Origin: Escherichia coli
GTDB taxonomy: Bacteria; Pseudomonadota; Gammaproteobacteria; Enterobacterales; Enterobacteriaceae
DNA length: 64,000 bases
Direction: 5' to 3' (one strand)
Assembly (NCBI RefSeq): GCF_030013205.1
Contig: NZ_CP122648.1
The position numbers were made by a program, and so were the translations under genes. Positions 29,082-58,149 of this stretch are shown here, in pieces. The notes beneath the pieces are model-generated. The model made no database searches. It was given only the letters and a program-made list of their open reading frames with translations, and had not been told where the DNA came from. How positions within the stretch are numbered: position 1 is the stretch's first letter; every line of letters starts with the position of its first letter.

Positions 29082-29155
29082 GCGGGCGTAGTTCAATGGT
29101 AGAACGAGAGCTTCCCAAGCTCTATACGAGGGTTCGATTCCCTTCGCCCGCTCCA
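29082..29155 (+). tRNA. glyU: tRNA-Gly (anticodon CCC)
   Basis: GCGGGCGTAGTTCAATGGTAGAACGAGAGCTTCCCAAGCTCTATACGAGGGTTCGATTCCCTTCGCCCGCTCCA. It folds as a cloverleaf with anticodon loop TTCCCAA and an encoded CCA end. Confidence 0.95.
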
Positions 29156-29169
29156 AACAAACATTTCTC

Positions 29170-29243
29170 AACGTCTACTAAAGTCCATCAAACCCACGAA
29201 TATCAAGCCTTCCAGCCATTTTCATAGTTTATTAACGTCTACT
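29170..29243 (+). repeat. two direct AACGTCTACT boxes in the att-proximal arm (third, inverted copy at 31665-31674)
   Basis: AACGTCTACT occurs at 29170-29179 and 29234-29243. Its reverse complement AGTAGACGTT occurs at 31665-31674, just upstream of alpA. Confidence 0.6.
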
Positions 29244-29270
29244 CACAACTACCAGAATCTACACACAGAA

Positions 29271-29307
29271 GTGTATAGTAATGCGTATAGGACAAAATTT
29301 ATTTTTT
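29271..29307 (+). repeat. arm-type repeat GTGTATAGTAATGCGTATAGGACAAAATTTATTTTTT (partner at 43307-43336)
   Basis: It is closely similar to GTGTATAGAAATGTGTATAGAATTTATTTT near the other island end, in the same orientation. In a circular form the two copies would flank the att core. Confidence 0.6.
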
Positions 29308-29319
29308 GGAGCTATACAC

Positions 29320-30534
29320 ATGCTGCTTTCAGACCTTGCCATCAGGCGCGCGAAGCCGAAAGAAAAGGCTTATACACTCAATGACGGTAACGGGCTTTCG
29401 TTGCTCATTGAGCCGAACGGTTCGAAAGGGTGGCGACTGCGCTACAGGTTTGCAGGAAAGCCCAAAATGTTGTCGTTGGGTGTGTACCCTGATGTGTCTC
29501 TGTCTGATGCCAGGGCGGCAAGGGATGAGGCTAAAAGGCTTCTTGCTGGTGGTATAAATCCAAGTGAGGCCAGAAAAGCCCAAAAGCGAGAACAGGCGAG
29601 CAAATTTGGCAATACTTTTGAGGGTATTGCTCGCGAATGGTACGAAAAGCGGATCGACAGGTGGTCATCGTCATACGCCGAGGAAATGATCGAGACGTTT
29701 GAAAAAGATGTTTTTCCGTACATTGGCGGTAGGCCGATCGCAGAAATTAAGCCGATGGAATTGCTGGCGGTTCTTTCCCGTCTTAATGACCGTGGTGCGA
29801 CTGAAAAATTGCGTAAGGTTCGCCAGCGATGCGGCGAGGTGTTCCGGTACGCAATCATCACCGGACGCGCCGAATATAATCCAGCCCCTGACCTGGTGAG
29901 CGCATTTGCTCCACATAAAAAAGAGCATTACGCCTATTTGAAGGCCGACGAACTGCCGGAATTTTTCCGCGTTTTTAATACGTACACCGGAAGCCAGATC
30001 GTCAAACTGGCAATGCGGCTATTAATTCTGACAGGTGTCAGACCCGGGGAATTACGGCAGGCAGAATGGCAGGAGATCGATTTTGATAATCGTTTGTGGG
30101 AAGTGCCTAAAGAACGAATGAAGATGCGCCGTCCGCATTGTGTGCCATTACCAGAACAGGCGATAAAAATACTGGAGCAGTTAAAAAACATGACAGGCCA
30201 GTATCAGTTTATTTTCCCCGGTCGTATTCGCCACAGTAAGCCAATGAGTGAAATGGCGATGAATGTGCTCATTCGTCGTATCGGCTATGCCGGGCGCGTT
30301 ACTGGTCATGGATTCCGGCACACCATGAGCACCATTTTGCATGAGCAGGGCTATAACACTGCGTGGATAGAAACGCAGCTCGCGCACGTCGATAAAAACT
30401 CAATTCGTGGCACGTACAACCATGCGCAATATCTGGACGGGCGGCGGGAAATGCTTCAGTGGTACGCTGATTATATGGATTCGCTCGAGCATGGCGGAAA
30501 TGTGGTGCATGGTGAGTTCGGAAAATGCGGGTGA
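29320..30534 (+). CDS. int: tyrosine integrase, P4-like
   Basis: ORF 29281..30534. The ATG at 29320 follows a GGAG. The N-terminus MLLSDLAIRRAKPKEKAYTLNDGNGL is typical of P4-type integrases. The catalytic region contains GVRPGELRQ, HGFRHT and RGTYNH. Confidence 0.9.
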   Translation: MLLSDLAIRRAKPKEKAYTLNDGNGLSLLIEPNGSKGWRLRYRFAGKPKMLSLGVYPDVSLSDARAARDEAKRLLAGGINPSEARKAQKREQASKFGNTFEGIAREWYEKRIDRWSSSYAEEMIETFEKDVFPYIGGRPIAEIKPMELLAVLSRLNDRGATEKLRKVRQRCGEVFRYAIITGRAEYNPAPDLVSAFAPHKKEHYAYLKADELPEFFRVFNTYTGSQIVKLAMRLLILTGVRPGELRQAEWQEIDFDNRLWEVPKERMKMRRPHCVPLPEQAIKILEQLKNMTGQYQFIFPGRIRHSKPMSEMAMNVLIRRIGYAGRVTGHGFRHTMSTILHEQGYNTAWIETQLAHVDKNSIRGTYNHAQYLDGRREMLQWYADYMDSLEHGGNVVHGEFGKCG

Positions 30535-30662
30535 CTGGTTGAGTATACAGTAGTAGACTTTGAGCGACGAAAGAAAAGGCTGTGTCTAGGGTCGCTCCCG
30601 AAAATCCGTACACCTCGACGGACTGGTACAGCCACTACAGTAGAGGACGCTGAGGTGTGCGT

Positions 30663-31460
30663 ATGATTGATATTCATGCCGAATTAAACGAATACAAAAA
30701 AGATTTTATTTCTTTACGTGAATTTCTTGAGGTCGTGCTTAAGGTCGCTGGTGATGATTATGATGTTTCAGATGTCATAACTTGGATACTCAGGAGAATA
30801 AGCGGAGAACATATCCGCCTGTACACAGTAAATGAATTTAAGCTGTTGGAATCTTTTTGTAACCCGTATCGGGATGAATTTGATAATGATGTTCTTTATA
30901 GAAATCTGAATGCGGTTCGGAAACGTGGTTGTTTACCTGGTGAGAGGGATGAAAATGGTTTTCTGGTGTCCGGTTATTGGGAAGATCCCGAATTTGAGAA
31001 CATTGGATTTATAAGGGGTGAAATTTTCGCAATTTTTCCCGATGTCCTTGACGCGTTAACGAAGCTGGAAGGCGCTAACTCTTCTGAAAATGACGAGGCA
31101 CAAGGACGCGATATTGAAAAGAAAGAGTTGCGTACAGAGGATGATTTATTATCCCAAATCGCAATGCTGGAAAAAGAAAACGCAGAGTTAAGGGCAAGGA
31201 TAGAGCAGTTAGAGCAAGAGCGCCCGATACACTTATATAAATACTGGGATAAAGACCCATTAGCTAAGGCTATTGAGATTAGAAACAGAGAGTGGGCCAA
31301 TTACGATCCAGAAAATGATTTTGCCACCAGGGGAAATCAAGAAGCGATAACCAGGGAGCTTAAGCAGTGGGGGGCAAGTAATGCACTTGCAACGCTCATA
31401 GAGAGGACTGCCTGCCCTATTAACCGAGACAACAGCCAAAAGAACGCAAAGCCGGATTAA
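30663..31460 (+). CDS. hypothetical protein (265 aa) with C-terminal coiled coil; cargo position between int and alpA
   Basis: ORF 30657..31460. The ATG at 30663 lies 7 nt after GAGG. I recognise no domain. There is a heptad-like segment, LLSQIAMLEKENAELRARIEQLEQE. Confidence 0.6.
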   Translation: MIDIHAELNEYKKDFISLREFLEVVLKVAGDDYDVSDVITWILRRISGEHIRLYTVNEFKLLESFCNPYRDEFDNDVLYRNLNAVRKRGCLPGERDENGFLVSGYWEDPEFENIGFIRGEIFAIFPDVLDALTKLEGANSSENDEAQGRDIEKKELRTEDDLLSQIAMLEKENAELRARIEQLEQERPIHLYKYWDKDPLAKAIEIRNREWANYDPENDFATRGNQEAITRELKQWGASNALATLIERTACPINRDNSQKNAKPD

Positions 31461-31475
31461 CGCACCATACCGCAT

Positions 31476-31618
31476 ACCCTGAGGGTGATTTACTGTTACC
31501 CTGAGGGTATTTTTTTATCTTCCCCGTCAATTTTACCATCACCCTTAGGGTAGATTTCCTCCCGATTACCATCACCCTTAGGGTAGATTTCCTTCCGGTA
31601 ACCATTAGGCCTGAGGGT
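31476..31618. promoter_or_regulatory. five phased 11-bp palindromes ACCCT(G/T)AGGGT (operator array) upstream of alpA
   Basis: Boxes lie at 31476-86, 31498-508, 31541-51, 31574-84 and 31608-18 (the last reads GGCCTGAGGGT). Centre spacings are 22, 43, 33 and 34 bp. Boxes 3 and 4 sit inside a 33-bp tandem duplication (31535-31567 / 31568-31600). Confidence 0.7.
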
Positions 31619-31687
31619 ATGAAAATATTCGTTATTTCTGTGCCATGATTACCTCGTCAAATTGAGTAGACGTTATGAGGTAAATAT

Positions 31688-31885
31688 ATGTCAAATACGC
31701 TTATTCGTTTAACAGAAGTTCAGCGTAGAACTGGATATAGCAAGGCATGGATTTATCGCCTTATGGGGCAAGGTAAATTTCCTGCATCAGTTAAAATTGG
31801 CTCGCGAGCTATTGCTTTCGTTGAGAGTGAAATTGACGAGTGGATTAATCAGCGTATTGCGGAATCACGCGGAACAGCTACCTGA
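31688..31885 (+). CDS. alpA: AlpA-family transcriptional regulator/excisionase-like HTH protein
   Basis: 65 aa. The sequence LIRLTEVQRRTGYSKAWIYRLMGQGKFPASVKIGSRAIAFVESEIDEWI is a classic AlpA/Xis MerR-like HTH. Confidence 0.85.
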   Translation: MSNTLIRLTEVQRRTGYSKAWIYRLMGQGKFPASVKIGSRAIAFVESEIDEWINQRIAESRGTAT

Positions 31886-31962
31886 TTAAATGGCTACGGG
31901 GCTATTGCCCCCAGCTATCCACCAGCAAATAAAAGTAACTTAATTCGATAGCAGGAGTTTTT

Positions 31963-32763
31963 ATGAAATTTCCAAAAACGCCCGTACAGGGGCGGGGCTT
32001 CGTTCGGCCTGAAAACCAGAATCTGCAAAATTTCGGCGAAATTATCCCGATTATTTCCGGCGTTATTGGCGGGAGTGAAACCACTATTGTTAGCGCCAGA
32101 GCGTTACATAAGGCGTTAGGTGTAGGGCGCGTTTTCCGTTCGTGGATCAAGGGGCGCATTGAAGAATATGGGTTCACGGAAGGCGTGGATTATAAGGTTG
32201 TTGAATATTTGAGCCGACCCGATCCGGTGAGCGCAAAATCTCGCCAGCAAACCGCTCTTGAGTACATCATCACAGTGAACATGGCGAAAGAACTGGCGAT
32301 GGTCGAACGTACCGAACAGGGCCGCGCCGTTCGCCAGTACTTTATCAAATGCGAGGAGGAGCTACACAAGGTTGCGCCTGTTCGTTCCGCAGCGTTACGC
32401 CGGGAACTGAAAGCCCGTATCACAGTTGCCAGCTACTTTAAGCCAATGTGTGCCGCGCTGGAGGCGTACCGGGCTGAACTGGGTAAAAACACACTCCAGC
32501 ACCACTACACCACGGAAGCGAACATGCTGGCGCGTATCGTGCTGGGTGGCATGACTGCAAAACAGTGGGCACTGGCGAACGGCATTACAGGCGAACCACG
32601 CGACCACATGAGCACGTTGCAGCTTGAGCACCTTTCTTACCTTGAGCAGAGCAATATCACGCTGATTGAGTTAGGCCAGGACTACCACCAGCGGAAGGCT
32701 GAATTAATTCGTCTTTCGCAGCGTTGGTTAGCCCGTCGCATGGAGGAAAACAGCCATGTGTAA
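31963..32763 (+). CDS. phage antirepressor-like protein (AntA/Bro-N type N-terminus, KilAC-like C-terminus)
   Basis: 266 aa. The segment VSARALHKALGVGRVFRSWIKGRIEEYGFTEGVDYKV matches the antirepressor N-terminal domain pattern. Confidence 0.65.
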   Translation: MKFPKTPVQGRGFVRPENQNLQNFGEIIPIISGVIGGSETTIVSARALHKALGVGRVFRSWIKGRIEEYGFTEGVDYKVVEYLSRPDPVSAKSRQQTALEYIITVNMAKELAMVERTEQGRAVRQYFIKCEEELHKVAPVRSAALRRELKARITVASYFKPMCAALEAYRAELGKNTLQHHYTTEANMLARIVLGGMTAKQWALANGITGEPRDHMSTLQLEHLSYLEQSNITLIELGQDYHQRKAELIRLSQRWLARRMEENSHV

Positions 32764-32778
32764 CGCTCTGACCGTTAC

Positions 32779-32809
32779 AAAAAGAAAAAGCGCCCCGTTG
32801 CCGGAGCGC
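32779..32809 (-). terminator. intrinsic terminator for the leftward RHH operon (also abuts the stop of the antirepressor gene)
   Basis: Stem GCGCCCCG/CGGAGCGC (7 of 8 pairs) with loop TTGC. On the minus strand it is followed by TTTTTCTTTTT. Confidence 0.6.
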
Positions 32810-33069
32810 CTTTGTGAACGAATAGCCTACTGCGCCATATTGCTTACTGTCTACGAGGCAGATTATAGCGTTGTGGTCGCACAGAGTGAAGGCGCTGATC
32901 ACCGTTACTACAGCACACCAGAAATGCAGAATATTTTGCTGCAAAATGTCGTTGGCCACGCTGTCCGGAAAGCAAAAAATTTTGCTGGTGGCGTGACTGA
33001 TACGATTTTTTCTGGTTGCTCGGTGCTGATCAACTTAACCTGGACTTATGTACAACATTGCAACTATTC

Positions 33070-33216
33070 CTACTTTAAGCTGAATGTAACTTTACCTATA
33101 TCATTAGAGGTATGGTCGCGCTTGACCTCAATTTCACCATTTTGTAGCCCTGCTACAAAAAAATATAAAAGTGTCAATGTTGCTGCAATCAGTAACCATT
33201 TTCCAAAAATATACAT
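33070..33216 (-). CDS. possible 48-aa membrane peptide
   Basis: Unlisted small ORF MYIFGKWLLIAATLTLLYFFVAGLQNGEIEVKRDHTSNDIGKVTFSLK. It lies 21 nt downstream of the RHH gene. It has one predicted TM helix and a weak RBS. Confidence 0.3.
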   Translation of the reverse strand: MYIFGKWLLIAATLTLLYFFVAGLQNGEIEVKRDHTSNDIGKVTFSLK

Positions 33217-33237
33217 TCTTGATTTTACCCTTAATCG

Positions 33238-33411
33238 TCAACCTTTTGGCACGATGCCTCGCTGTTGTAATTCTTTGCGGAGCACTCGTTTAATCCAGGT
33301 AGCTAATGAGGTGTCGCCGTCTGCTTTGGCTGCCTCCTCAAGTTGTGCCCTAAATTCTTCTGGTAGCCGCATTTGGTATGGTGGCGATCGTTTTTCTAAT
33401 GGTGTTGACAT
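33238..33411 (-). CDS. ribbon-helix-helix (Arc/MetJ-like) DNA-binding protein, 57 aa
   Basis: Unlisted ORF MSTPLEKRSPPYQMRLPEEFRAQLEEAAKADGDTSLATWIKRVLRKELQQRGIVPKG. It shows a beta-strand then two-helix RHH pattern. GGTAATTACC palindromes overlap its start. Confidence 0.6.
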   Translation of the reverse strand: MSTPLEKRSPPYQMRLPEEFRAQLEEAAKADGDTSLATWIKRVLRKELQQRGIVPKG

Positions 33412-33451
33412 GGTAATTACCCATAATTACTATAGTTACACGGTAATTACC
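33412..33451. promoter_or_regulatory. operator-like palindromes GGTAATTACC x2
   Basis: GGTAATTACC occurs at 33412-33421 and 33442-33451, with a degenerate copy (CATAATTACT) between them. They lie immediately upstream of and overlapping the RHH start codon. Confidence 0.55.
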
Positions 33452-33547
33452 ATTGTACTTACCATTGCAAAAAAAACAACGCCCCGGACTGCGGGAACAG
33501 TACCAGGGCGTCTAACCACCAACGATAGCGAAAGTATCGAGGTAGCT

Positions 33548-33751
33548 ATGATAAATCATACCACACACCCGCAAGGGCGGGACTCGCACAACCTGAATAA
33601 ATACATCTGGCGTTTTATCGCCCTGAGCACGGCACAACCGCGCGTGATTCACATCGAGGCCACCAGCGAACAGGAAGCCCGCCAGCAATCTCCTGATGGC
33701 TGCGTGATGGTATTCGCTGCCCGTATTCGCCAGGAGGTACGCCATGATTAA
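33548..33751 (+). CDS. small protein, possibly Icd-like (P4-family cell-division-inhibitor-like)
   Basis: 67 aa (MINHTTHPQGRDSHNLNKYIWRFIALSTAQPRV..VFAARIRQEVRHD) with GAGG upstream. It is the only plausible part of the listed 331-aa ORF 32756..33751. The family call is from memory only. Confidence 0.4.
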   Translation: MINHTTHPQGRDSHNLNKYIWRFIALSTAQPRVIHIEATSEQEARQQSPDGCVMVFAARIRQEVRHD

Positions 33752-34109
33752 CCTGTCACTTACCGACCTTCACCGCATTCAGTTTGACGAGAAATTTACC
33801 GGGCAGCTACTGGTCCATGTGGAGAACGGGCGCATAGTGCGTAATTACCACCTGCCGGATGGTGCAATTGCCGGAAGCGTTGAAGCATTGCTGGAAATGG
33901 CAGAACGTGCGCGACTGATTAAGCCGTTAACGTGCCATCACGATGATGATCTGCATTTTACCGGACGCATGGTGAGCCATTATGAAAACGGCGTTGAGGT
34001 ATCCCGCGAACGTCTGCGTGATGATTGCTGTTTCGGCACATTGCCGGAATTTATCGAATTGCTGACCGATTGCGGTTATCAGGTAATTCAGAGCAAGACG
34101 CAGGAGTAA
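33744..34109 (+). CDS. hypothetical protein (121 aa)
   Basis: ATGA overlap with the preceding gene. No recognisable motif. Confidence 0.55.
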   Translation: MINLSLTDLHRIQFDEKFTGQLLVHVENGRIVRNYHLPDGAIAGSVEALLEMAERARLIKPLTCHHDDDLHFTGRMVSHYENGVEVSRERLRDDCCFGTLPEFIELLTDCGYQVIQSKTQE

Positions 34110-34115
34110 AAAACC

Positions 34116-34406
34116 ATGAAAAAGAAAAATTCTGGCTTTACTGCCAGCGGCCCCGCTCGGCCTGAAATCAAACACGGCGATATTTACCGCGACACCAGAC
34201 GTGGGGGACGAGTGGTTATTCGTCACGTTACGCCAGGCAATATCACCTACCGCCGTGAGGCTTACGAATATGACTGCGTAATGCCGCGCCGTCAGTTTGA
34301 GCGTGATTTTATTCTGGTGGAAAACAAACAACAGGCGGTGGCGAGACGTGCAGCCACGAATATTAAAAAAATCCGGGCAATGTTGGTTGCGGGAGGTAAG
34401 AAGTGA
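34116..34406 (+). CDS. hypothetical small basic protein (96 aa)
   Basis: Its stop overlaps the primase start. It occupies a position typical of small accessory genes upstream of P4-type primases. Confidence 0.55.
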   Translation: MKKKNSGFTASGPARPEIKHGDIYRDTRRGGRVVIRHVTPGNITYRREAYEYDCVMPRRQFERDFILVENKQQAVARRAATNIKKIRAMLVAGGKK

Positions 34407-36208
34407 AAAACGCCCCGAATTTAAAATATCAGCCGAAGGATAAATTCACTGAGGTAATCATTTTTGCCGGGACGGATGCTTACGCCCATGCTCAACACTG
34501 GATTGAAAGCGAAGGACGAAAACACGGCGATAACGTACCACCTGTTTACCTGGGGCCGAAGCAACTGGCAGACCTGGCGAACATCCGCATTATCGACGAA
34601 GGGCGCCGCTTTGCGCGTGTCTATATCGCAGGGGAGATCGAACCAATTCAGATCAACGCTATCGCCGAAAAGCTGGCACTGGCTGGCGTACAGGAGGCGA
34701 AATTATACAAAGGCATCACCGACCGGGAGCCGGAGAACTGGCGCGATTACCTGCAACGGATCCGCGAACAGGCAGAGCGCGGGGAAGTTTCAGCGATGAA
34801 ATTAGTCACAAAAAATAGTGACCTACCCAGGCCAGCACTAAATCAGATGGGAGCCAGCCAGAGAGGGGAAGTATTGCTTGAATATTATGGAAGGGCACTG
34901 GCTATAAATGACGATTCTGATGTAGTTCACCATTACAACGGAATTGTCTGGGAGCCTGTATCTGATAAGGAACTCCAGCGGTCTATGGCGAAGATTTTTA
35001 TTGATGCTGGAATCAGTTATTCGCAAAACGCCATTAAATTTGCCGTAGACACAATGAAATTGAGCCTGCCTGTTATGGGCGGGGCAGACAGGAATCTTAT
35101 TGGATTCAGTAACGGGGTATTTGATACCCGGACAGGAAATTTTCGGGAGCATAACAAAAATGACTGGTTGTTAAATGCCAGTGAATTACCGTTCAGCCCA
35201 CCAGCAGAGGGGGAAACGCTGGCAACACATGCGCCGAATTTCTGGAAGTGGCTGCGTCGTTCGGTGGCAAATAACGATCGTAAAGCGGATCGCGTACTGG
35301 CGGCATTATTCATGGTACTGGCGAACCGGTACGACTGGCAGTTATTCCTTGAGGTAACGGGGCCGGGCGGAAGCGGTAAAAGTGTGATGGCGGAGATTTG
35401 TACCATGCTGGCGGGTAAGGCCAATACAGTATCGGCGAGCATGAAGGCGCTGGAAGACGCGAGGGAACGAGCGTTAGTGGTGGGATATTCTCTGATTATC
35501 ATGCCTGACATGACCCGCTACGCAGGTGATGGTGCTGGGATTAAGGCCATTACAGGCGGTGACAAGGTGGCAATCGACCCGAAACATAAAGCCCCCTACT
35601 CCACACGTATTCCGGCGGTAGTGCTGGCAGTAAACAATAACGCCATGTCATTCAGTGATCGCAGTGGAGGGATCTCGCGTCGTAGGGTGATATTTAATTT
35701 CTCTGAGGTCGTACCGGAGAACGAACGCGATCCCATGCTGGTGGAAAAAATAGAAGGCGAACTGGCGGTAGTGATTCGCCATTTGCTTACACGATTTGCC
35801 GACCAGGACGAAGCGAAAAGACTACTTTATGAGCAGCAAAAATCAGAAGAAGCACTGTTAATAAAGCGTGAAGGTGATTCGCTGGTGGACTTCTGCGGTT
35901 ATCTGATGTCGTTGGTTAAATGTGAGGGGATGATAGTAGGTAATGCAGAAATAGTGCCATTTAGCCCGAGGCGATATCTGTATCATGCTTATTTGGCTTA
36001 TATGTCTGCGCATGGTCTGGGAAAACCGGTATCACTGACACGCTTTGGTACAGATATGCCAGGGGCAATGGCTGAGTACGGAAAGGAGTACAAGCGGGCT
36101 AAATGCACTAAAGGTCCAGATAAAGGGCGAACGATCACAAATGTTCTGTTAGATAAAGATGCTGATGGATGGTTACCAGCAGCGGCAGGCATTAACGACA
36201 GAACATGA
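34403..36208 (+). CDS. P4-alpha/D5-type primase-helicase (replication initiator)
   Basis: 601 aa. It has Walker A VTGPGGSGKS and Walker B-like LIIMPD. The overall layout matches the phage/plasmid primase P4-family C-terminal domain. Confidence 0.8.
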   Translation: MKNAPNLKYQPKDKFTEVIIFAGTDAYAHAQHWIESEGRKHGDNVPPVYLGPKQLADLANIRIIDEGRRFARVYIAGEIEPIQINAIAEKLALAGVQEAKLYKGITDREPENWRDYLQRIREQAERGEVSAMKLVTKNSDLPRPALNQMGASQRGEVLLEYYGRALAINDDSDVVHHYNGIVWEPVSDKELQRSMAKIFIDAGISYSQNAIKFAVDTMKLSLPVMGGADRNLIGFSNGVFDTRTGNFREHNKNDWLLNASELPFSPPAEGETLATHAPNFWKWLRRSVANNDRKADRVLAALFMVLANRYDWQLFLEVTGPGGSGKSVMAEICTMLAGKANTVSASMKALEDARERALVVGYSLIIMPDMTRYAGDGAGIKAITGGDKVAIDPKHKAPYSTRIPAVVLAVNNNAMSFSDRSGGISRRRVIFNFSEVVPENERDPMLVEKIEGELAVVIRHLLTRFADQDEAKRLLYEQQKSEEALLIKREGDSLVDFCGYLMSLVKCEGMIVGNAEIVPFSPRRYLYHAYLAYMSAHGLGKPVSLTRFGTDMPGAMAEYGKEYKRAKCTKGPDKGRTITNVLLDKDADGWLPAAAGINDRT

Positions 36209-36236
36209 TACGAAATTTATAAGTTGAAACTTAAAA

Positions 36237-36575: not shown

Positions 36576-36580
36576 TAACG

Positions 36581-49815: not shown

Positions 49816-49828
49816 TAATGAAAATCAT

Positions 49829-50615: not shown

Positions 50616-50719
50616 GTTCACCCTTTAAACCTATCTTTAAGCATGTTTAATAAGCATTCTTAGAGATACGTTTAAAACCTCCTCAAGGTTTTACTTATCG
50701 CTGTGTATTGCCCGACACG

Positions 50720-50779
50720 TTAATAAATCCCCCTCGCTATTGTCAGATTGAACCTCTTATAGCCTGGGGGATTTATTAA
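50720..50779 (+). repeat. perfect 14-bp inverted repeat with 32-nt spacer
   Basis: TTAATAAATCCCCC (50720-33) and GGGGGATTTATTAA (50766-79). It lies 29 nt before the ATG at 50808. Confidence 0.8.
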
Positions 50780-50807
50780 ATTCCAGCATAATGGAATCGT
50801 TATATAA

Positions 50808-51017
50808 ATGAAACAAGAAATTATCCTGAAATATGGCAATGAAAAGTTAACACTAACTGAAGATGTGTTGAATGCTACAGCCTACGCGCTTGGCATCACT
50901 CCCACAGAATTAAAGAAACAGTGTGAACGTCTTTATAAGGCTGAAAGCAATAAACCATCTCACCAAGATTTGATTAATGCTAAAGCTCAACAAATCAAAC
51001 AATCTAAGGAAAAATAA
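50808..51017 (+). CDS. hypothetical protein (69 aa)
   Basis: First ORF after the long leader. Its stop overlaps the next start (TAATG). Confidence 0.55.
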   Translation: MKQEIILKYGNEKLTLTEDVLNATAYALGITPTELKKQCERLYKAESNKPSHQDLINAKAQQIKQSKEK

Positions 51018-51391
51018 TGGCTATTTTAAAATTAAGCGATGTTTTCCCACATCGTAAAAGCATCACTGACGTAGTGAGCTATGCAACCGACCCTTACGCG
51101 GCTGTAGAAAGCAAAAAATTTGCAGCACTTGCACAAGATGTAACGTGCGGCGACCTCATTGATTCATCCGGCGCTAAATATGTTAGCGGCGCTGATGTTC
51201 TTGTCGTTGTGTCTGACTTCGTAACTGCTGATTCAAATAAAACAGTTAACGTGCTTCGTGCTAATGCCGGACTCGTTTGCATCAAAGCTGATGCCCTGAA
51301 TGCCGAAGGCGCTGTAAAAGAAGCTGCTATTGCAGCTCTCGCTGCTAAAGGCTTCCAGCTTGAAGGCTTCCACTCTGTTTTCACATCTTAA
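51017..51391 (+). CDS. head-decoration-like protein (124 aa)
   Basis: Its size, Ala/Val-rich beta-type composition and position immediately upstream of the capsid-like gene resemble lambda gpD-type decoration proteins. Confidence 0.4.
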   Translation: MAILKLSDVFPHRKSITDVVSYATDPYAAVESKKFAALAQDVTCGDLIDSSGAKYVSGADVLVVVSDFVTADSNKTVNVLRANAGLVCIKADALNAEGAVKEAAIAALAAKGFQLEGFHSVFTS

Positions 51392-51407
51392 GAAGGAATA
51401 AATAATA

Positions 51408-52436
51408 ATGATTATCGGAAATGAAGTGGTTGATCTTGCTCCACTGTTCGAATTAAACGACTCACGCAATTACCTACTGTCTACTCTGGATTTTACTGAT
51501 CCTGTGCCTGTAGAAAGTCACAAAGTGGCTGTTTCCCAGCTTATCGAGAGCAATGAATCTCTGTTCAACCATCCTACAAGCCGTTTTAGCTCTGAGCATA
51601 ACGTTACTAAGCGTGAGAACGGGGAAGAATGGCTGATTGAAATCCCTTACTTCCTGCGTGAAGACCTGATCAAACCGCAGGACGTGCAAGGCAAACGCAA
51701 AGCCGGAAGCTCTATTGAAGAAACACTGCCGGATCTGTATGCGGAATATATCGCTACACACAATGTTGCATTCCAGCGCACTAAAGAAAGCATCCTCGCG
51801 GCTTCTCTGTTCTCTGGCAAGACACATACCCCGAAAACTGACGATGTTCTGATCGACTACAGCACTCTGTTCGGTGTGTCTCCAATGACTGCAACCGTTG
51901 ACGCATCCAGCACCAACACAATGACCGTATTCAAGCAATTTGATCAGATGCATACGGATATGATTGCTAAGGCACAAAGCCAGGCTGCAACCATTGAGCG
52001 TGTTGTTGTGTTCTGTAAACCTGCGGCATTCAACGCTATTCGTTACAGCGTTGGCATGGTTAATGCGTTCCAGTATGCAAGCCCTGTAGACGATGCAAAC
52101 GTGGTGTTTAATGTGCGTTCTCTGCTGCCTGGTGTAACTACTTTCACCATTCCAGGAACTAACATTGACCTGATCAAAGTGACTGATCCGCTGCTGCTGG
52201 CACATATGACCGCTGACGCTGTAGCTATTCCTAAACTTGCTAAGGGGGCAGGTGTTTACCAAGCTATTTTTGGTGCGCCTTCCAGTTCATTCGATCTGCT
52301 GTCTCAAGGCGCTAAAGAGTATTACAGCTATGCTTTCGAATCGAATCGCGGCGACGCAGTGCACGTAGTGACCGAGAATAGCTCGCTTGTGGTTAACCAC
52401 GGTGTTGGCTTCTCTGTGCAGATCACAGTAGCGTAA
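51408..52436 (+). CDS. major capsid protein-like (gpE-like size class, 342 aa)
   Basis: 342 aa, which is my recollection of the lambda gpE length class. It follows the decoration-like gene, has a strong RBS (AAGGAAtaaataataATG) and codon usage suggesting high expression. The family is not verifiable here. Confidence 0.45.
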   Translation: MIIGNEVVDLAPLFELNDSRNYLLSTLDFTDPVPVESHKVAVSQLIESNESLFNHPTSRFSSEHNVTKRENGEEWLIEIPYFLREDLIKPQDVQGKRKAGSSIEETLPDLYAEYIATHNVAFQRTKESILAASLFSGKTHTPKTDDVLIDYSTLFGVSPMTATVDASSTNTMTVFKQFDQMHTDMIAKAQSQAATIERVVVFCKPAAFNAIRYSVGMVNAFQYASPVDDANVVFNVRSLLPGVTTFTIPGTNIDLIKVTDPLLLAHMTADAVAIPKLAKGAGVYQAIFGAPSSSFDLLSQGAKEYYSYAFESNRGDAVHVVTENSSLVVNHGVGFSVQITVA

Positions 52437-52590
52437 AAAGTGTTAAAGACGTTCCCCTACGTCTGGAAATAATCGGGGCAATAAGGGTAAGGGATAATCA
52501 TATAAGCAAAATATGCGCTGTCTCTTGCACTTTTTGTTTTTCTACTGTCTACAAACCCAAATAAAAATATATATATGTGAGAGAAAACCA

Positions 52591-52788
52591 ATGAATACAG
52601 AAAATTCACAGGCATTAATTCTTAAATCTGTAAAAGAACTGGCAGCTATTAGCGATGACTCAATAATCAATGTCAGTGCCTTATGCAGAATGCTTTCAAT
52701 TGATGCAAATAATGTGCGGCAGCGTGTGTTTCAGACTGGATGCAGCACTTTTGAAGCAATTACATACTACTGTTCTAAAAAACAATAA
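52591..52788 (+). CDS. hypothetical small protein (65 aa)
   Basis: Internal ATG of ORF 52513..52788 with GAGAG upstream. The segment VSALCRMLSIDANNVRQRV is HTH-like. Confidence 0.45.
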   Translation: MNTENSQALILKSVKELAAISDDSIINVSALCRMLSIDANNVRQRVFQTGCSTFEAITYYCSKKQ

Positions 52789-52822
52789 TAAACAACAATC
52801 ATAATACAGGGAAACAATTAAC

Positions 52823-54646
52823 ATGTTAGAGCTAAACATCAGCCGCTTGTCAAACGTTGTCACCTTCGAAGTTAACCGACCATCATTAGAGAAAGCAAAA
52901 GCAGAAGTAGAAAAACTTCGTAAACAAATGGCGGCGGTGAAAGATATAGAATTGCGTGTTAAGACACATAAACAATCAACCGCTAGAGCAAAAAAAGACG
53001 TAGACGATATTGCTAAAAAGCAAGCACAGGCTGATAAAGCTAATGCTAAAGCACAATTAGCCGCTCAACGTGTAGTTGCAAGAGAACAAAAAGCCCTGGC
53101 AGCACGCAAAGAGAAGGCAGAATTAAAGCTTTTAGACGTTGGATCAAGCATTAGTGCAATGCACCGTCTTTCTGTAGCGGAACAATATAAAGCTATTGCA
53201 CAGGCTAGAGAAATTGCCCTCCAATATGAAAGAGGCGCTATTAGTCTGGCACGTATGAATAGCCAAATGAAACGCCTACAACAGCAACAACGTAAGATTA
53301 ATGGCAATCGTAACGCTCACGCTAAAGCCTATGCACCTGTTAAGGGTAGCGGGAGTATTGGCGGCGGTGCTGCGGCTGTTATGCTGGGTGGCTTAGGCGC
53401 TGGCGCTACGTATATGGCTATGAGCAAAGCCTCTGAATTTATGGCTAATAGCTTTGCGAATGCTGAAACAGAAGGGGAATTAATCCAACGTGCAAGGCTT
53501 GGTGGAGTTGATTACAACTTACTTAATAATCTTGAGCGTTGGGCTTACGATAACGGGATCGATAGCCTCCAGGGTGATCAGGGACGCAGAAAAATACTAG
53601 ATGCCATCGGTAAAGATGTGCGTGAACGTGCAACCAAATCTTATGACGAGGCTGAATATGTAGTCGATAAGAAAACAGGGAAAGGCGAATGGAAGGGCGG
53701 CGATAGCGGCATCAATACTTTAATGAATGAAGGATTCCTAACTAAAAAGGATCTAAAAGACTTTGCTGATAATCCGGCTGGTCTGGTTAGTAAAGCAGTT
53801 CAGGGAATGGTAGCTAAAGGCTATTCAGATGCACAAATCGGTAGTCGTCTGGAAGATCTGGCTGATGATTTGATGCTCACCTCTAAATACTGGACACGCT
53901 CCGCTAAAGAAGTGGAACAATCAGCACGAGAACAACGAGAATCAGGGCGCTGGGTAACGCAGGCACAACAGGAAAGCGTTATTAAATTCCGTGAACTGAA
54001 TAATGCACTTAGTGGGCTTTCTGACTCACAAGGGATCGCCTTTGTTGATGGCTTTATGAAATCTCTTGATCCGAAAGTGATTGAAGAGTTTAAAAAGAGC
54101 ATGGTTGCAATGCTGCCAATGTTTACCAAATTAGGCGAGGCTATCGGCGGATTGGTTAACGCTGTAATGAAAGCAATCAACTGGCTGATGAAAAACGACG
54201 AGAAGACGGCAGCTATTCAGAAGAATTTAGGTGATGCACCGCCACTATCTAACGAAGGAATGAAGCAGAATCTTTCTAATCTCACTCCTGATCAATATAA
54301 AGGCGCTGGCACCGGAACAACTAAGCCAGATAACAGCAATTCCCTGGTTAACACTATTAAAAGCTGGTTTATGCCAGAAGAAACGGTAGGTGGGGCGCAG
54401 GCTGTAAATCAATACAGTCTCGAAGGACAAAACATTGCAAATCTGAAACAGAGTGCAGCACAACAAGCTTTCAAGGCTCCTTCTTACACCTTTGCACCTG
54501 TTATTAACTTCAATCCAGAATTACAAGTAAATGCAGAAGTGCCGCTAACTATCGAATCAGACACCGGACGATTGAGCGAATTTATCGACTTCAAATCAAA
54601 GGCATCTTCCGCTGAGTTTAGCAAGCTATTTAGACTGGCCCCCTGA
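52823..54646 (+). pseudogene. tape-measure-like protein, 3' end displaced by IS2 (native ORF = 52823-54630 + 55967-56003)
   Basis: 607-aa ORF. It has a long coiled-coil N-terminus and a Gly-rich hydrophobic segment (GSIGGGAAAVMLGGLGAGATYMAM). The last 4 codons and the stop come from the IS2 end. Removing IS2 and one CTATT copy restores ..SKLLTLGVMSGGSTY*. Confidence 0.55.
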
Positions 54647-54721
54647 ATCTCCAGACAACCAATATCACTTAAATAAGTGATAGTCTTAATACTAGTTTTT
54701 AGACTAGTCATTGGAGAGCAG

Positions 54722-55087
54722 ATGATTGATGTCTTAGGACCGGAGAAACGCAGACGGCGTACTACACAGGAAAAGATCGCTATTGTTCAGCAGAGTTTTG
54801 AACCGGGAATGACGGTCTCCCTTGTTGCCCGGCAACACGGTGTGGCAGCCAGCCAGTTATTTCTCTGGCGCAAGCAATACCAGGAGGGAAGTCTTACTGC
54901 TGTGGCCGCAGGAGAGCAGGTCGTTCCTGCCTCTGAACTTGCTGCTGCCATGAAGCAGATTAAAGAACTCCAGCGCCTGCTCGGCAAAAAAACGATGGAA
55001 AATGAACTCCTTAAAGAAGCCGTTGAATACGGGCGTGCAAAAAAGTGGATAGCGCACGCGCCCTTATTGCCCGGGGATGGGGAGTAA
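54722..55087 (+). CDS. insC: IS2 transposase OrfA
   Basis: [41 protein letters not shown].., recognised as IS2 InsC. Confidence 0.95.
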
Positions 55088-55950
55088 GCTTAGTCAGCCG
55101 TTGTCTCCGGGTGTCGCGTGCGCAGTTGCACGTCATTCTCAGACGAACCGATGACTGGAAAGATGGTCGCCGCAGCCGTCACTCAGATGATACGGATGTG
55201 CTTCTCCGTATACACCATGTTATCGGAGAGCTGCCCACGTATGGTTATCGTCGGGTATGGGCGCTGCTTCGCAGACAGGCCGAACTTGATGGTATGCCTG
55301 CGATCAATGCCAAACGTGTTTACCGGATCATGCGCCAGAATGCGCTGTTGCTTGAGCGAAAAACCGCTGTACCGCCATCGAAACGGGCACATACTGGCAA
55401 AGTGGCCGTGAAAGAAAGCAATCAACGATGGTGCTCTGACGGGTTCGAGTTCCGCTGTGATAACGGAGAAAAACTGCGAGTCACGTTCGCGCTGGACTGC
55501 TGTGACCGTGAGGCACTGCACTGGGCAGTCACTACGGGCGGCTTCGACAGTGAAACAGTACAGGACGTAATGCTGGGAGCGGTGGAACGCCGCTTCGGCA
55601 ACGAGCTTCCGGCGTCTCCAGTAGAGTGGCTGACGGATAATGGTTCATGCTACCGGGCTAATGAAACACGGCAGTTTGCCCGGATGTTGGGGCTTGAACC
55701 GAAGAACACGGCGGTGCGGAGTCCGGAGAGTAACGGCATAGCAGAGAGCTTCGTGAAAACGATAAAGCGTGACTACATCAGTATCATGCCTAAACCAGAC
55801 GGGTTAACGGCAGCAAAGAACCTTGCAGAGGCGTTCGAGCATTATAACGAATGGCATCCGCATAGTGCACTGGGTTATCGCTCGCCACGGGAATATCTGC
55901 GGCAGCAGGCCAGTAATGGGTTAAGTGATAACAGGTGTCTGGAAATATAG
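55045..55950 (+). CDS. insD: IS2 transposase OrfB (expressed with OrfA by -1 frameshift)
   Basis: 301-aa ORF, an integrase-core DDE protein recognised as IS2 InsD. Confidence 0.95.
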
Positions 55951-56050
55951 GGGCAAATCCACTATTAACGCTGGGTGTTATGTCAGGCGGGTCAACCTAT
56001 TAATCATCACTGTGGGGCGGTTTAGCCCCCTTAAATAAGGATTACAAATT

Positions 56051-56728
56051 ATGGCAATGGGTCCGTTAACCATTGGTCGCCCGACTGAGGCGAAAATCAA
56101 CAGCACAAGCAACGATAGCAACGGTAGAACAACCAAAGGGGGTAACGGCTTTGCGATCATTACCTCTAATCTCGGCAGTGGTGCAAATGCTGCTTACAAT
56201 GACTACCAGGCATTATCATTTGATAGCGTGGAATCGACGAAAGTTAGCAGAAATGCGGACGTTACAAGCTATGCCGTCGAATCAGGATCAGAAGTTAGTG
56301 ATCATGTTCAAATACGGAATAACAAGTTCACATTACAAGGGCGTATCTCTGAAACCGTATTGAAGCTCAATCCCGATATGATTAAGAATGCGGGAATTAA
56401 CGGCAATCGACGTATGCTTATGCTTGAATACCTAAATCAGTTGATGGACAGTCGCCAACCTTTCCTACTTGTCACTGAGTTAAAAAATTATGACAACGTT
56501 GTGTTAGTTGGCATGTCTTACGAAGAAGAAGCAAGCGAAAGCCTATTGTTTACTCTTGATTTTGAGCAAATCCGTCTTGTCTCTAAAGCAACTACAAGCG
56601 CAATTGCGGTAAAAACAGCACCAAATAAATCTGTAGGAGGTCAGGTTAAAATGCAGGTAAATACAACAGAACAGAAAAATCAAAAAAGCCCAGGGCAAGA
56701 CGTTGTAACGCCAGTATTTAAACAATAG
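56051..56728 (+). CDS. hypothetical phage-structural-like protein (225 aa) downstream of the tape-measure-like gene
   Basis: ORF in the track with a beta-rich composition. The function is inferred only from its position after the tape-measure-like gene. Confidence 0.4.
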   Translation: MAMGPLTIGRPTEAKINSTSNDSNGRTTKGGNGFAIITSNLGSGANAAYNDYQALSFDSVESTKVSRNADVTSYAVESGSEVSDHVQIRNNKFTLQGRISETVLKLNPDMIKNAGINGNRRMLMLEYLNQLMDSRQPFLLVTELKNYDNVVLVGMSYEEEASESLLFTLDFEQIRLVSKATTSAIAVKTAPNKSVGGQVKMQVNTTEQKNQKSPGQDVVTPVFKQ

Positions 56729-56769
56729 CCTTAAACACCTATGAAACGCTCTATAACGAGATAATCATA

Positions 56770-56805
56770 AAAGAGGCATCAATCTATATTGAAGCCTCTT
56801 TATTA
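56770..56805. terminator. bidirectional hairpin between the convergent 225-aa gene and integrase
   Basis: AAGAGGCATCAA tctata TTGAAGCCTCTT followed by TATT. Confidence 0.55.
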
Positions 56806-56821
56806 CGTCTATGGCGTTGTT

Positions 56822-58042
56822 TTACGCCTTAAAATCAATATTTAATTCATATCTTACTAATTCTACATATTCAGCTAATTCTGGAATGCTTGCCCCTTGT
56901 GAGTAGGTGCGAAAGGCTTCTGTTTTGGCTTTTTGCTCAGTGTGGCCCGTAATACTGCCGATCCTGGTCTCGCTAACTCCGGCACGATCAAGACAAGTGA
57001 TAAACATCCCGCGCAAGCTGTGAAAGCATTGTCTATCTGTAGCGATTGGCAAGACGCTACGACGTAAACGTGAGAATGCTTGAGAATAGAACGGGCCTTT
57101 CTTGCCGTCGATTCTTTTTACTTTGTTCGAGTGAGGGAACAAATATTCACCATAATTATGATTTAAATATTCATCGACAATAATCGATAGTCTCGAATGT
57201 ATCGGAACGTGTCTGATCCCTGCTTTAGTCTTACTCTTGCTGATATAAAAACAGCGTATTCCTTCCACAGTTACAACCTCTGACTTTTTCAGGCTTGCCA
57301 GTTCGTCTAATCTGCATCCTGAAAACAAGCCCATTAAAATAATATTTCTGATCTCCGGCTCCGCTGCATCAAGTAGCTTTTGCATTTGTTCAGGTGTAAA
57401 CGGTTGATAACTCTCGATTGTGCGACGTGCTTCGAGGTTATGACCGTGAAAAGGGTTACTGTCTGGTATTCCGTCATAACGGCGTTTAGCAAATTCATAG
57501 AGCGATCCTAAGCATGTAAGCCAGTTTTGACGAGATTGATCGGCTGCTCCTCGTTGCTTCTGGTCATCTAAGAATACTGTTACAAGCCGTCTGCCTATTT
57601 TCTCAATATGAATATCATCTTTCTGAATGCTTTGTAAAAATAGCTCAACGGCCCTTGCTGATTTCTGTAGTGTTGAGTATGAACGACGCTCTCTGTAGCA
57701 TTCGGCGTATTCGTCACGTATTAAGCATAGGGAAGGCGATGCATAACCGCGTTTTACGGCTCTTTGCGTGTTTTTATTGGCCCTTGCCTCTGAATGTAAG
57801 AATTCAATAGCTTTTTGTAACCTCCTTTCGGGGTTATCAGGATTATGTTTCCGCTTTAGTTCCTCCCATTCTAATAACAGATGGTTTCTGAATCTTCTCG
57901 CCTCATTCAGATCTCGTGTAGATGTGCTTTTTCTCCACAACTTGTAAGGGTAAAGATGGCGTAAGTATTTAGGAACAAAAATCTGAAACATCCAGATCCC
58001 ATCTTTTCTCTTAAATAAGTATGCTTGGCTCTTGATCGACAC
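56822..58042 (-). CDS. int: tyrosine recombinase/integrase of Island 2 (406 aa)
   Basis: Catalytic signature present: GCRLDEL (Arg), HSLRGMF (His-x-x-Arg), ITGH, RTYSQG (Tyr). It starts 86 bp from att core copy 3 and reads into the island. Confidence 0.85.
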   Translation of the reverse strand: MSIKSQAYLFKRKDGIWMFQIFVPKYLRHLYPYKLWRKSTSTRDLNEARRFRNHLLLEWEELKRKHNPDNPERRLQKAIEFLHSEARANKNTQRAVKRGYASPSLCLIRDEYAECYRERRSYSTLQKSARAVELFLQSIQKDDIHIEKIGRRLVTVFLDDQKQRGAADQSRQNWLTCLGSLYEFAKRRYDGIPDSNPFHGHNLEARRTIESYQPFTPEQMQKLLDAAEPEIRNIILMGLFSGCRLDELASLKKSEVVTVEGIRCFYISKSKTKAGIRHVPIHSRLSIIVDEYLNHNYGEYLFPHSNKVKRIDGKKGPFYSQAFSRLRRSVLPIATDRQCFHSLRGMFITCLDRAGVSETRIGSITGHTEQKAKTEAFRTYSQGASIPELAEYVELVRYELNIDFKA

Positions 58043-58127
58043 GATAATGATCCTCTATTATCACGTAATCAGTTACCTATGATTGATCACAAAATCTTTA
58101 TTTTACAGCAGGTTATTATGGGTTTCC

Positions 58128-58149
58128 TCGATTCCCTTCGCCCGCTCCA
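58128..58149 (+). repeat. att core copy 3: TCGATTCCCTTCGCCCGCTCCA (22-bp direct repeat of the glyU 3' end)
   Basis: Exact match to 29134-29155. It is preceded by GGGTTTCC, a degenerate continuation of the T-arm. Confidence 0.9.

Follow-up and report, generated by a model that had tools for sequence, protein, structure and literature searches.

How do two islands with nothing recognisable in common come to stand one behind the other at a single tRNA gene, and does each of them come and go on its own? This question is raised by a stretch of 64,000 bp (hereafter the window) that is 100% identical (megablast) to the chromosome of Escherichia coli ETEC4079 (NZ_CP122643.1, window position 1 being record position 927999), a strain isolated from pig faeces in Belgium. 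The gene order in the region is xdhCBA, actS, glyU, Island 1, Island 2, a GH15/ygeQ-like gene, a ghoT-like gene and the ETT2 type III secretion cluster. We put a probability of roughly 85% on the scenario that two unrelated elements with overlapping cores (18 bp for Island 1 and 22 bp for Island 2) integrated successively and site-specifically into the 3' end of glyU. Island 2 would have come first and Island 1 would then have entered the regenerated tRNA gene, so that Island 1 would adjoin the tRNA and the middle repeat would be attR of Island 1 and attL of Island 2 at once. The features on which this scenario rests are as follows.

29082–29155, + strand: glyU, tRNA-Gly(CCC), 74 nt (ARAGORN, as the only tRNA found in the window; Rfam tRNA; RefSeq annotation)
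29138–29155, + strand: core copy 1, the last 18 nt of glyU, attL core of Island 1 (core search)
43386–43403, + strand: core copy 2, with the double role of attR core of Island 1 and attL core of Island 2 (core search, junction alignments with sister strains)
58128–58149, + strand: core copy 3, attR core of Island 2, 22 bp the same as in glyU (core search)
29320–30534, + strand: int1, P4-type tyrosine recombinase, 404 aa (Pfam Arm-DNA-bind_3, E=1.9e-26; Phage_int_M, 8.6e-33; Phage_integrase, 2.8e-28)
56822–58042, - strand: int2, tyrosine recombinase with DUF6538, SAM_1 and Phage_integrase, 406 aa, reading inward from the distal end (Pfam, NCBIfam)

The 18-bp core TTCCCTTCGCCCGCTCCA is present on the + strand in three exact copies (at 29138, 43386 and 58132); allowing up to two mismatches adds no copy in the window, and none of 100 shuffled sequences contained a match. 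At the distal copy the match to the tRNA spans 22 nt, starting at 58128. Island 1 occupies 29156–43403 (14,248 bp) and Island 2 occupies 43404–58149 (14,746 bp including an insertion sequence (IS) of 1,331 bp, or about 13.4 kb without this IS2), and the original chromosomal flank (GH15/ygeQ, ETT2) resumes after 58149. The glyU gene of the window is the same in sequence as that of strains with an empty site. The first-pass annotation of this DNA had described two unrelated elements in tandem at one tRNA, with three copies of the glyU 3' end and with very different tyrosine recombinases at opposite ends, and our comparisons bear this description out. With the cores removed, blastn of Island 1 against Island 2 returned nothing and no protein pair matched at E≤0.01; Int1 and Int2 share 19% identity (BLASTP, E=0.23) and differ in domain architecture. 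The GC content of Island 1 is about 0.44–0.52, and that of Island 2 mostly about 0.34–0.45 except in the IS2 segment.

Each island alone, both, or neither at glyU

To survey the population we searched 600-bp junction queries, synthetic and real, against 5426 complete E. coli genomes, requiring at least 80% query coverage; the chromosomal flank after the core, for the junction of Island 1 with that flank, is ATTTATCTTC. The following arrangements were found.

Empty site (glyU directly followed by the GH15 flank): 3397 genomes
glyU directly followed by the left end of Island 2, that is, by its P' arm sequence: 258 genomes
glyU followed by the left end of Island 1: 79 genomes
Right end of Island 1 directly followed by the chromosomal flank: at least 17 genomes, and more at 76–78% coverage with related islands
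Island 1-to-Island 2 junction: 3 genomes (ETEC4079, ETEC1748 and ETEC4090), and 2 more at 78% coverage with a related Island 1

The comparison of glyU loci across E. coli that the first-pass annotation had proposed thus reveals the empty site, each island alone and the tandem, as is required of separable units. About four tandems are expected if the two islands occupy the site independently, which is close to the number observed, and we see no sign of coupling or exclusion between them. Excision of Island 1 from the array would yield the state with Island 2 alone and excision of Island 2 that with Island 1 alone, each being gained or lost separately.

The order of arrival can be read from a near-isogenic set of pig enterotoxigenic E. 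coli (ETEC). Strain ETEC4067 differs from the window by two mismatches in the 29,155 bp of the left flank and by one in the 5,851 bp of the right flank, and apart from the IS there is 100% identity over Island 2; Island 1 is missing, glyU leading directly into the left arm of Island 2. What separates ETEC4079 from ETEC4067 is Island 1 in its exact extent of 14,248 bp, up to the core. ETEC1748 shares its background and Island 2 with ETEC4079, and its Island 1 is a different mosaic, with segments 94–99% identical and with replaced blocks. In ETEC4090 the background differs (98.8% identical flank), and a variant of Island 2, 72–86% diverged with the gene order kept, is preceded by an Island 1 that is 99.9–99.98% identical to that of the window except for an internal deletion of 1.3 kb. 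ETEC1747 carries a variant of Island 1 alone. The islands assort independently, and Island 1 recently entered glyU sites that already held Island 2; we regard it as settled that Island 1 was the last to arrive and that it has recently been mobile. Its position next to the tRNA fits the rule that an element integrating into a regenerated tRNA gene ends up beside the tRNA. Nor does the outcome hold under which the first-pass annotation would have been abandoned, namely no excision junctions and two segments always co-occurring as one fixed block: the three tandems represent three different combinations, and a metagenome contains an attP-type junction from a relative of Island 1 (see below).

The cores of the sister strains differ in a detail. 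In ETEC1747, ETEC4090 and ETEC1748 the attR core of Island 1 is imperfect, with a 1-bp deletion (TTCCCTTCG-CCGCTCCA; TTCCCTTCGCCGCTCCA), glyU itself being intact there, and the full CCC is found in the core of ETEC4079 and in the metagenomic attP contig. The exact 18-bp middle core is particular to ETEC4079 among the sister strains compared. The deletion suggests either strand exchange 3' of the C-run or slippage within the C-run.

As a structure the array is ordinary and adds no new principle. It displays every defining feature of a tandem tRNA-gene island array, a known and catalogued kind, with 125 tandems among the 3919 islands of Islander (PMC4383910). As in the tandem arrays of Islander/TIGER (PMC4383910), the intact tRNA gene marks one end, each island is closed by a 3' tRNA-gene fragment of its own in the same orientation downstream of the tRNA, and each has its own integrase gene; SatelliteFinder even has a post-processing step that splits tandem satellites (PMC10085698). 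Nothing essential sets the present array apart, the pair being merely a less commonly described one, with a P4-type and a DUF6538-type integrase at the outer ends. The value of the locus lies in the near-isogenic set, comprising ETEC4067 (Island 2 only) and ETEC4079 and ETEC1748 (different Island 1 elements before the same Island 2), in which the order of accretion is unambiguous and which allows tests of interference between unrelated integrases acting on one core. That integrases from unrelated families target one and the same tRNA 3' end is familiar at tmRNA and at several tRNA genes.

Attachment arms, integrases and junctions

If each island is its own integration unit, each should have its own attachment arms. 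The relevant features of Island 1 are these.

29156–29319, + strand: P' arm of Island 1 (attL side), the spacer between the tRNA and int1 (motif search; layout conserved or co-varying in 18 glyU-linked relatives)
29271–29278, + strand: arm-type site GTGTATAG (motif search)
29282–29290, + strand: arm-type site TGCGTATAG (motif search)
29312–29319, inverted: arm copy CTATACAC, abutting the int1 start codon (motif search)
43306–43385, + strand: P arm of Island 1 (attR side), with two direct TGTGTATAG sites (43306–43314 and 43318–43326) followed by TTTATTTT
29170–29179, 29234–29243 and, inverted, 31665–31674: AACGTCTACT boxes, three exact copies in the window against 0.10 expected
30579–30646, + strand: int-alpA RNA motif RF02996, just downstream of int1 (cmscan, 45.5 bits against a gathering score of 35.8)
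31688–31885, + strand: alpA, AlpA/Vis-type helix-turn-helix (HTH) protein of 65 aa, with a leader from 31652 (Pfam Phage_AlpA, E=2.4e-19)

The arm repeats at both ends of Island 1 and the three boxes, one of them inverted in front of alpA, had already been noticed in the first-pass annotation, and they hold up quantitatively: the best shared 20-nt window of the two arms has 18 of 20 matches, a value that none of 300 shuffles reaches. The inverted copy at 29312–29319 is an addition to that earlier description.

A scan of one genome per species recovered 80 relatives of Int1. The closest of them occupy 18 loci downstream of tRNA-Gly(CCC), at a distance of about 165–200 bp, and come from Shimwellia, Serratia, Leclercia, Symbiopectobacterium, Xenorhabdus, Yersinia, Pectobacterium, Rahnella and an Escherichia species; farther relatives are mostly found at tRNA-Ser(TGA), Thr(CGT), Arg(TCT or CCT) or SeC. 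The position and layout of the arm sites are kept in several genera of the Enterobacterales by relatives whose integrases are 69–82% identical to Int1, the aligned spacer reading as an inverted copy, GTGTATAG, 3 or 4 nt, TGnGTATAG, about 20 nt, CTATACAC and the ATG. At the Yersinia pestis locus and two Serratia loci all arm copies are GGGGGTAT or GTACCCCC, in the same positions as GTGTATAG and CTATACAC. Such a joint change of all copies is what would be expected of sites read by the arm domain of the integrase, and the specificity at these loci appears to have shifted together with the integrase. Rahnella islands of about 10.7 kb carry GTGTATAGTAATGTGTATAC about 75 nt upstream of the distal repeat, an arrangement as in the attR arm of Island 1. 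Judging from this pattern of conservation, we consider it settled that the arm repeats of Island 1 are genuine arm-type sites.

Int1 has the arm-binding, core-binding and catalytic domains of a P4-type integrase, with an NCBIfam match of the PRK09692 kind, and the repeats on both arms of Island 1 (29271–29290, 29312–29319 and 43306–43326) would provide the corresponding sites. It would bind the core and the arm sites, its arm domain recognising the GTGTATAG-type sites of either arm. Expression of P4 int is repressed by Int and Vis, which both bind to the DNA between the core and the promoter of int. Since one arm site covers the ribosome-binding and start region of int1, int1 may likewise be autoregulated through that site.

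AlpA is a candidate excision factor of Island 1, probably acting through the ACGTCTA boxes. Boxes 1 and 2 are kept as ACGTCTAC in the nearest relatives, and the third, inverted box lies 13 nt upstream of the alpA start codon. It is flanked in the alpA leader by CCTCGT (31652–31657) and ATGAGG (31675–31680), which can pair over the ribosome-binding site, and TAGACGTTA with complementary arms is kept upstream of alpA in Serratia and Leclercia relatives. The simplest reading would be that the AACGTCTACT boxes are sites for the AlpA/Vis-type excision factor, with one copy autoregulatory; a role of the leader hairpin at the RNA level is possible. Between a 265-aa open reading frame (ORF) and alpA, at 31475–31620, we also noted a cluster of TACCCTnAGGGTA palindromes with two near-identical 33-nt direct repeats, a likely operator or iteron region of the island.

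The arms of Island 2 are of another kind.

43404–43540, + strand: P' arm of Island 2, with CAGTTACCTAT at 43457–43467 and related AGTTAC copies near 43508–43530
58043 to core copy 3, + strand: P arm of Island 2, with CAGTTACCTAT at 58070–58080

CAGTTACCTAT has exactly two copies in the 64 kb, one located 53 nt after core 2 and the other ending 47 nt before core 3, and it is retained in the diverged Island 2 variant of ETEC4090. The overall similarity of the two arms is weaker than in Island 1, with 16 of 20 matches, a value reached by 4 of 300 shuffles. Int2 has no Arm-DNA-bind_3 domain and carries DUF6538 instead (Pfam), and we do not class it among the P4-type enzymes here; the protein is the same in strains with Island 2 only. 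The opposite placement of the two integrase genes follows from their positions in attP: int1 sits on the P'-arm side of its core and int2 on the P-arm side, both reading away from the core, and int2 is distal and reads inward because it would be encoded on the other side of the attP core of Island 2. In E. coli 74-2 (NZ_CP050044.1, locus 2947–16401) a relative of Island 2 with a different integrase occupies a tRNA-Ser, its int gene being likewise distal and inward, so the distal placement is a trait of the Island 2 family. Directly upstream of the same tRNA-Ser in 74-2 there is a different integrase with conjugative-transfer genes (trbL), and mobile elements are thus present on both sides.

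The junctions predicted for ETEC4079 are GGCTTGTTGTATTG-TTCCCTTCGCCCGCTCCA-AACAAACATTTC for attP1 and GGGTTTCCTCGA-TTCCCTTCGCCCGCTCCA-GAATCTCCCC for attP2, GAATCTCCCC being the left end of Island 2, and a joint circle would have the P arm of Island 2, the core and AACAAACATT, the P' arm element of Island 1. A degenerate pattern allowing any combination of the two P arms and the two P' arms around the core retrieved two contigs from metagenomes. The first, Ga0209547_100127 (14,517 bp), is a circular permutation of a relative of Island 1, about 90–98% identical over the aligned segments: it runs through the equivalent of window positions 43288–43403, including the core, and continues directly into 29138 and onward to about 42694, with no chromosomal flank. 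This is an attP junction such as would be expected of an excised circle or a concatemer. The second, OKAL01000078.1 (51.7 kb), joins a P arm of Island-2 type through the core to a P' arm of Island-1 type at 3058–3093, with int2-like and int1-like genes (about 74% nucleotide identity to those of the window) diverging from the shared core; by its layout it is a tandem in reverse order, Island-2-type first and Island-1-type second. Neither arm motif of the two islands occurs in the arms of the other, and in a joint excision by one integrase, one of the partners would therefore offer no cognate arm sites. Both joint excision and cross-talk between the islands, which the first-pass annotation had entertained, are speculative, and we found no evidence for either.

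How firmly the scenario stands

Several observations speak against successive integration by elements that are still mobile. In ETEC4079 itself excision is a prediction from the sequence. The exact attP1 and attP2 junctions were not found in IMG/VR, and no attP of Island 2 was found in metagenomes with the degenerate search; the attP-type contig could itself be a tandem duplication of the same island collapsed by the assembler. The 1-bp deletion in the attR core of three sister strains could hinder excision there. No sigma-70-like promoter for int1 or int2 was detected in simple scans around the cores, and no excisionase candidate was found among the ORFs of Island 2, small ones included (Pfam, PHROG), a copy that moreover carries IS2 in its tape-measure gene. 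Finally, the assignment of particular proteins to the AACGTCTACT boxes and to the arm sites is by inference only. We consider excision of the copies present in ETEC4079 likely for Island 1 and uncertain for Island 2.

Among the alternatives, the one that survives best holds that only Island 1 is active and that the Island 2 copy of ETEC4079 is decaying, being no longer able to excise or be packaged. The truncation of the tape-measure homologue by IS2, the lack of a recognisable excision factor and of an attP2 junction in the collections searched, and the weaker support for the arm motif (16/20, 4/300 shuffles) all point this way. On the other hand, int2 is intact and the same as in IS-free islands, the exact CAGTTACCTAT stands on both arms and nowhere else in the 64 kb, IS2 lies outside the att sites and int, and the family retains its gene order despite 72–86% nucleotide divergence, also at a second tRNA, where the integrase is a different one. 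We take this alternative seriously, at somewhat below even odds.

It is improbable, by comparison, that both islands are fixed, immobile remnants whose patchy distribution results from homologous recombination of the flanks after transduction or conjugation. Such a view could appeal to the missing in-strain evidence of excision, to the IS2 insertion and absent excisionase of Island 2, to the 1-bp attR core deletions and the internal 1.3-kb deletion in sister copies of Island 1, and to the lack of an attP junction in IMG/VR. Yet ETEC4079 and ETEC4067 differ by three single-nucleotide polymorphisms in 35 kb of flank and by one exact island, with no imported tract visible, and a near-identical Island 1 beside a different Island 2 variant in a different background is hard to obtain by flank exchange. 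Besides, an attP-type contig exists, the arm sites are under selection across genera, and both integrases are of full length, with the R, H-x-x-R, H and Y motifs visible in the alignments (read by eye from the BLASTP alignment: VRPGELR, HGFRHT, LAH and GTYNH in Int1; GCRLDEL, HSLRGMF, TGH and RTYSQG in Int2). On the strength of the exact one-island difference, the attP-type contig, the full-length integrases and the selection on arm sites we rejected an explanation by homologous recombination alone.

A single composite island of 29 kb moving or inherited as a block, with the middle repeat as an internal relic, would account for the shared core of the outer sites (glyU and 58128–58149), for the integrase gene at each outer end and for the presence of an array in both ETEC4079 and ETEC1748 within one lineage, but we rejected it on the population data as highly improbable, given that each half occurs alone at glyU elsewhere with boundaries exactly at the core, that the three database tandems are three different combinations in a number near the independent expectation, that a near-isogenic strain lacks Island 1 only, that the outer att sites bear the arm motifs of different elements, and that the junction of OKAL01000078.1, despite its joint-circle form, sits in a 51.7-kb contig read as a reverse-order tandem. 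Two successive integrations by separate elements remain our preferred account of the locus.

Gene content and likeness to known satellites

The content of the islands is more interesting than the array, especially that of Island 2, which points to virulent phages of the phi92/phAPEC8 type. Both elements would be satellite-like, each having an integrase, a regulator, replication genes and a few capsid or tail genes derived from a helper. In Island 1 these are the following.

34403–36208, + strand: primase/helicase with D5_N, DUF5906 and Pox_D5, P4-family primase C-terminal domain (Pfam, NCBIfam)
37822–41866, + strand: helper-derived module (tblastn against the temperate myophage record PP818812.1; PHROG)

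Within the helper-derived module, whose late genes are also homologous to those of Rac-SA53, the homologue of the protease/scaffold-position protein is split over two ORFs with the halves in swapped order: the ORF at 37822–38400 matches the C-terminal part of the myophage protein (64% identity) and that at 38465–39148 (DUF2213) its N-terminal part (54% identity). The next ORF, 39145–39762 (205 aa), matches the gene directly upstream of the tape-measure-position gene (85% identity), and the last, 39827–41866 (679 aa), is 88% identical to the first 501 residues of the tape-measure-position product, whose gene is annotated 'lytic transglycosylase' in PP818812.1. A 175-aa ORF has a weak N-terminal match to the small terminase family phrog_57 terS (E=1.3e-6, residues 1–42) that overlaps an HTH. 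Further content of Island 1 includes AntA, an Icd-like gene, DUF4222, ProQ/FinO and PerC. When ten candidate cargo ORFs were scanned with PADLOC, no defence system was recognised, and the sole match was a weak one of PDC-S22 in the AntA protein.

Island 1 resembles the int-vis region of P4 and the intA-alpA region of CP4-57 in having a P4-type integrase with an arm-binding domain beside the tRNA and a target in the part of the tRNA gene from the T-loop to CCA. Arm-type repeats in each arm, the int-alpA RNA motif, a P4-family primase and an HTH protein of the AlpA/Vis family are further points of likeness. It differs from P4 in its late genes, which come from a temperate myophage like pPE4/Rac-SA53, and in that no homologue of Psu, Sid, Delta or epsilon was detected among the ORFs scanned (Pfam, PHROG); of the hallmarks of P4-like satellites, int, AlpA and an alpha-like primase are present, whereas the psu-delta-sid operon and epsilon are not. 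Phage-inducible chromosomal islands (PICIs) comprise int, a regulator, a primase-replicase, capsid morphogenesis genes and a small terminase (PMC10085698). Island 1 combines an integrase, a regulator of the AlpA/MerR/Stl range and a primase-replicase, and it is like the Gram-negative PICIs of the EcCI type (PMC10085698) in its int, alpA and primase-replicase, its size of about 14 kb, its integration at a tRNA and its helper-derived capsid-assembly homologues (DUF2213, scaffold-position). Unlike them it has no clear small terminase, and it carries homologues of the helper's tape-measure-position gene and of the gene just upstream, something that we found reported for PICIs in no paper. By its layout Island 1 looks like a PICI/P4-like phage satellite; as to induction by a helper and packaging, the attP-type metagenome contig is only suggestive.

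Island 2 has the following genes.

45114–45665, - strand: small serine recombinase of the resolvase/invertase type, 183 aa (Pfam Resolvase, E=5.7e-39; NCBIfam)
47783–48463, + strand: candidate replication initiator, HTH_36 (weak PHROG matches to O-like replication initiators, E about 4e-6)
51408–52436, + strand: major capsid protein homologue, HK97 fold, Phage_cap_E (Pfam, E=1.1e-17; PDB Phi92_gp124, E=1.2e-8)
52823–54646, + strand: tape-measure homologue, phi92 gp134-like (PDB 21vq_V, E=1.1e-18; phrog_16051; tblastn against phAPEC8)
54631–55961, + strand: IS2-type insertion, IS3 family, 1331 bp, with a 5-bp duplication CTATT (54626–54630 and 55962–55966)
56051–56728, + strand: tail-tube initiator homologue, Dit-like (Pfam Dit_like, E=1.2e-27; PDB Phi92_gp135, E=7.4e-54)

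The genes for the capsid, tape-measure and tube-initiator homologues (51017–56728) stand in the same relative order as in phi92/phAPEC8-type phages, in which the roles of the structural proteins are known from phi92 cryo-electron microscopy (PMC13450770). The tube-initiator homologue is 53% identical to Phapecoctavirus proteins (tblastn), whereas the capsid homologue (25%) and the tape-measure homologue are only about 25% identical. The tape-measure homologue has 614 aa in the sister strains, with an intact copy in ETEC4067, and its 3' end is cut here by an insertion that we take to be IS2 from its length, ends and 5-bp duplication; the insertion occurs only in ETEC4079, and other pig ETEC have 11 Island 2 copies that lack it and are identical in all else. 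The structural genes gave no match in NCBIfam, and no portal, protease, connector or terminase was matched among the Island 2 ORFs (Pfam, PHROG, NCBIfam). A 124-aa ORF upstream of the capsid gene was considered as a decoration protein, which is unsupported by either a PDB sequence match or a tblastn match to the phAPEC8 structural region, and the candidate replication initiator had no meaningful match in a PDB sequence search. The IMG/VR relatives of the capsid gene are, by their identifiers, mostly prophage-type calls from isolate genomes and so uninformative on packaging.

From its genes, Island 2 looks like a phage satellite. Useful points of comparison are SaPIbov5, a Staphylococcus aureus pathogenicity island (SaPI) whose Ccm is a satellite-encoded capsid-protein homologue redirecting helper capsid assembly (PMC8569155), and the PICI-like elements (PLE) and phage-inducible chromosomal minimalist islands (PICMI), which are satellites of virulent phages (PMC10803314). 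Island 2 shares with them an integrase, a size of about 13.4 kb without IS2, an initiator-like gene, a distant capsid homologue and closest phages that are virulent myophages. It differs in that it has no sequence relationship to SaPI, PLE or PICMI genes and adds the tape-measure and tube-initiator homologues. Nor does it have the full capsid module of capsid-forming PICIs (cfPICI), as it has a capsid homologue only, with no portal, protease, connector or terminase. We tentatively suggest, as a possibility on which we would not insist, that Island 2 represents an undescribed E. coli family of satellites (or assembly-interference elements) aimed at large virulent myophages of the phi92/phAPEC8 group (Stephanstirmvirinae), that the array thus stacks satellites of two helper lineages, and that altering or poisoning the tail assembly of the helper is a recurrent strategy. 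In the literature we found no published description of either glyU island or of a satellite for phi92/phAPEC8-type phages; glyU appears there only as the site of ETT2 or as an unnamed 'GI-glyU'. A paper on 'Tai' (tail-assembly interference) contains no DUF2213, lytic transglycosylase or EcCI islands, and the tape measure appears only in its reference list.

It may be added that a myophage gene for the tape measure, or one at the tape-measure position, has a homologue in both islands of the tandem, and that the two homologues come from different lineages. Island 2 also includes a YecR lipoprotein gene, and next to its serine recombinase there is an AT-rich stretch of 1.7 kb without an annotated gene (45666–47357). 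This stretch contains GTAACG...CGTTAC palindromes at 46165–46324, four of them of the GTAACGnnnCGTTAC type, and a pair of 30-nt inverted repeats (46454–46483 and 46702–46731); the Island 2 variant of ETEC4090 has a similar stretch without annotated genes in the same position. The stretch may serve as an origin or an operator array, or may be invertible.

As regards the surroundings, genome papers place ETT2 as an insertion beside glyU (PMC2808357; PMC4313913), and for this reason the glyU locus is an old accretion hotspot, ETT2 being an older island without an integrase at the same tRNA. The flank at 58150–64000 has a low GC content (0.36–0.40) and comprises the GH15/ygeQ-like gene, a toxin gene of the GhoT/OrtT type and the start of ETT2. 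A simple promoter and terminator scan around the three cores found the glyU promoter only, a promoter-like site at 29037–29064, and no canonical terminator; a hairpin directly after core 2 was rejected as a terminator for want of a T-run. In the left flank, xdhA (25544–27835) is annotated as a pseudogene with an internal stop in ETEC4079 and as intact in ETEC4067. Its sequence is the same in both strains, whose left flanks differ only at 7824 and 23748, and the pseudogene call is probably an inconsistency of annotation.

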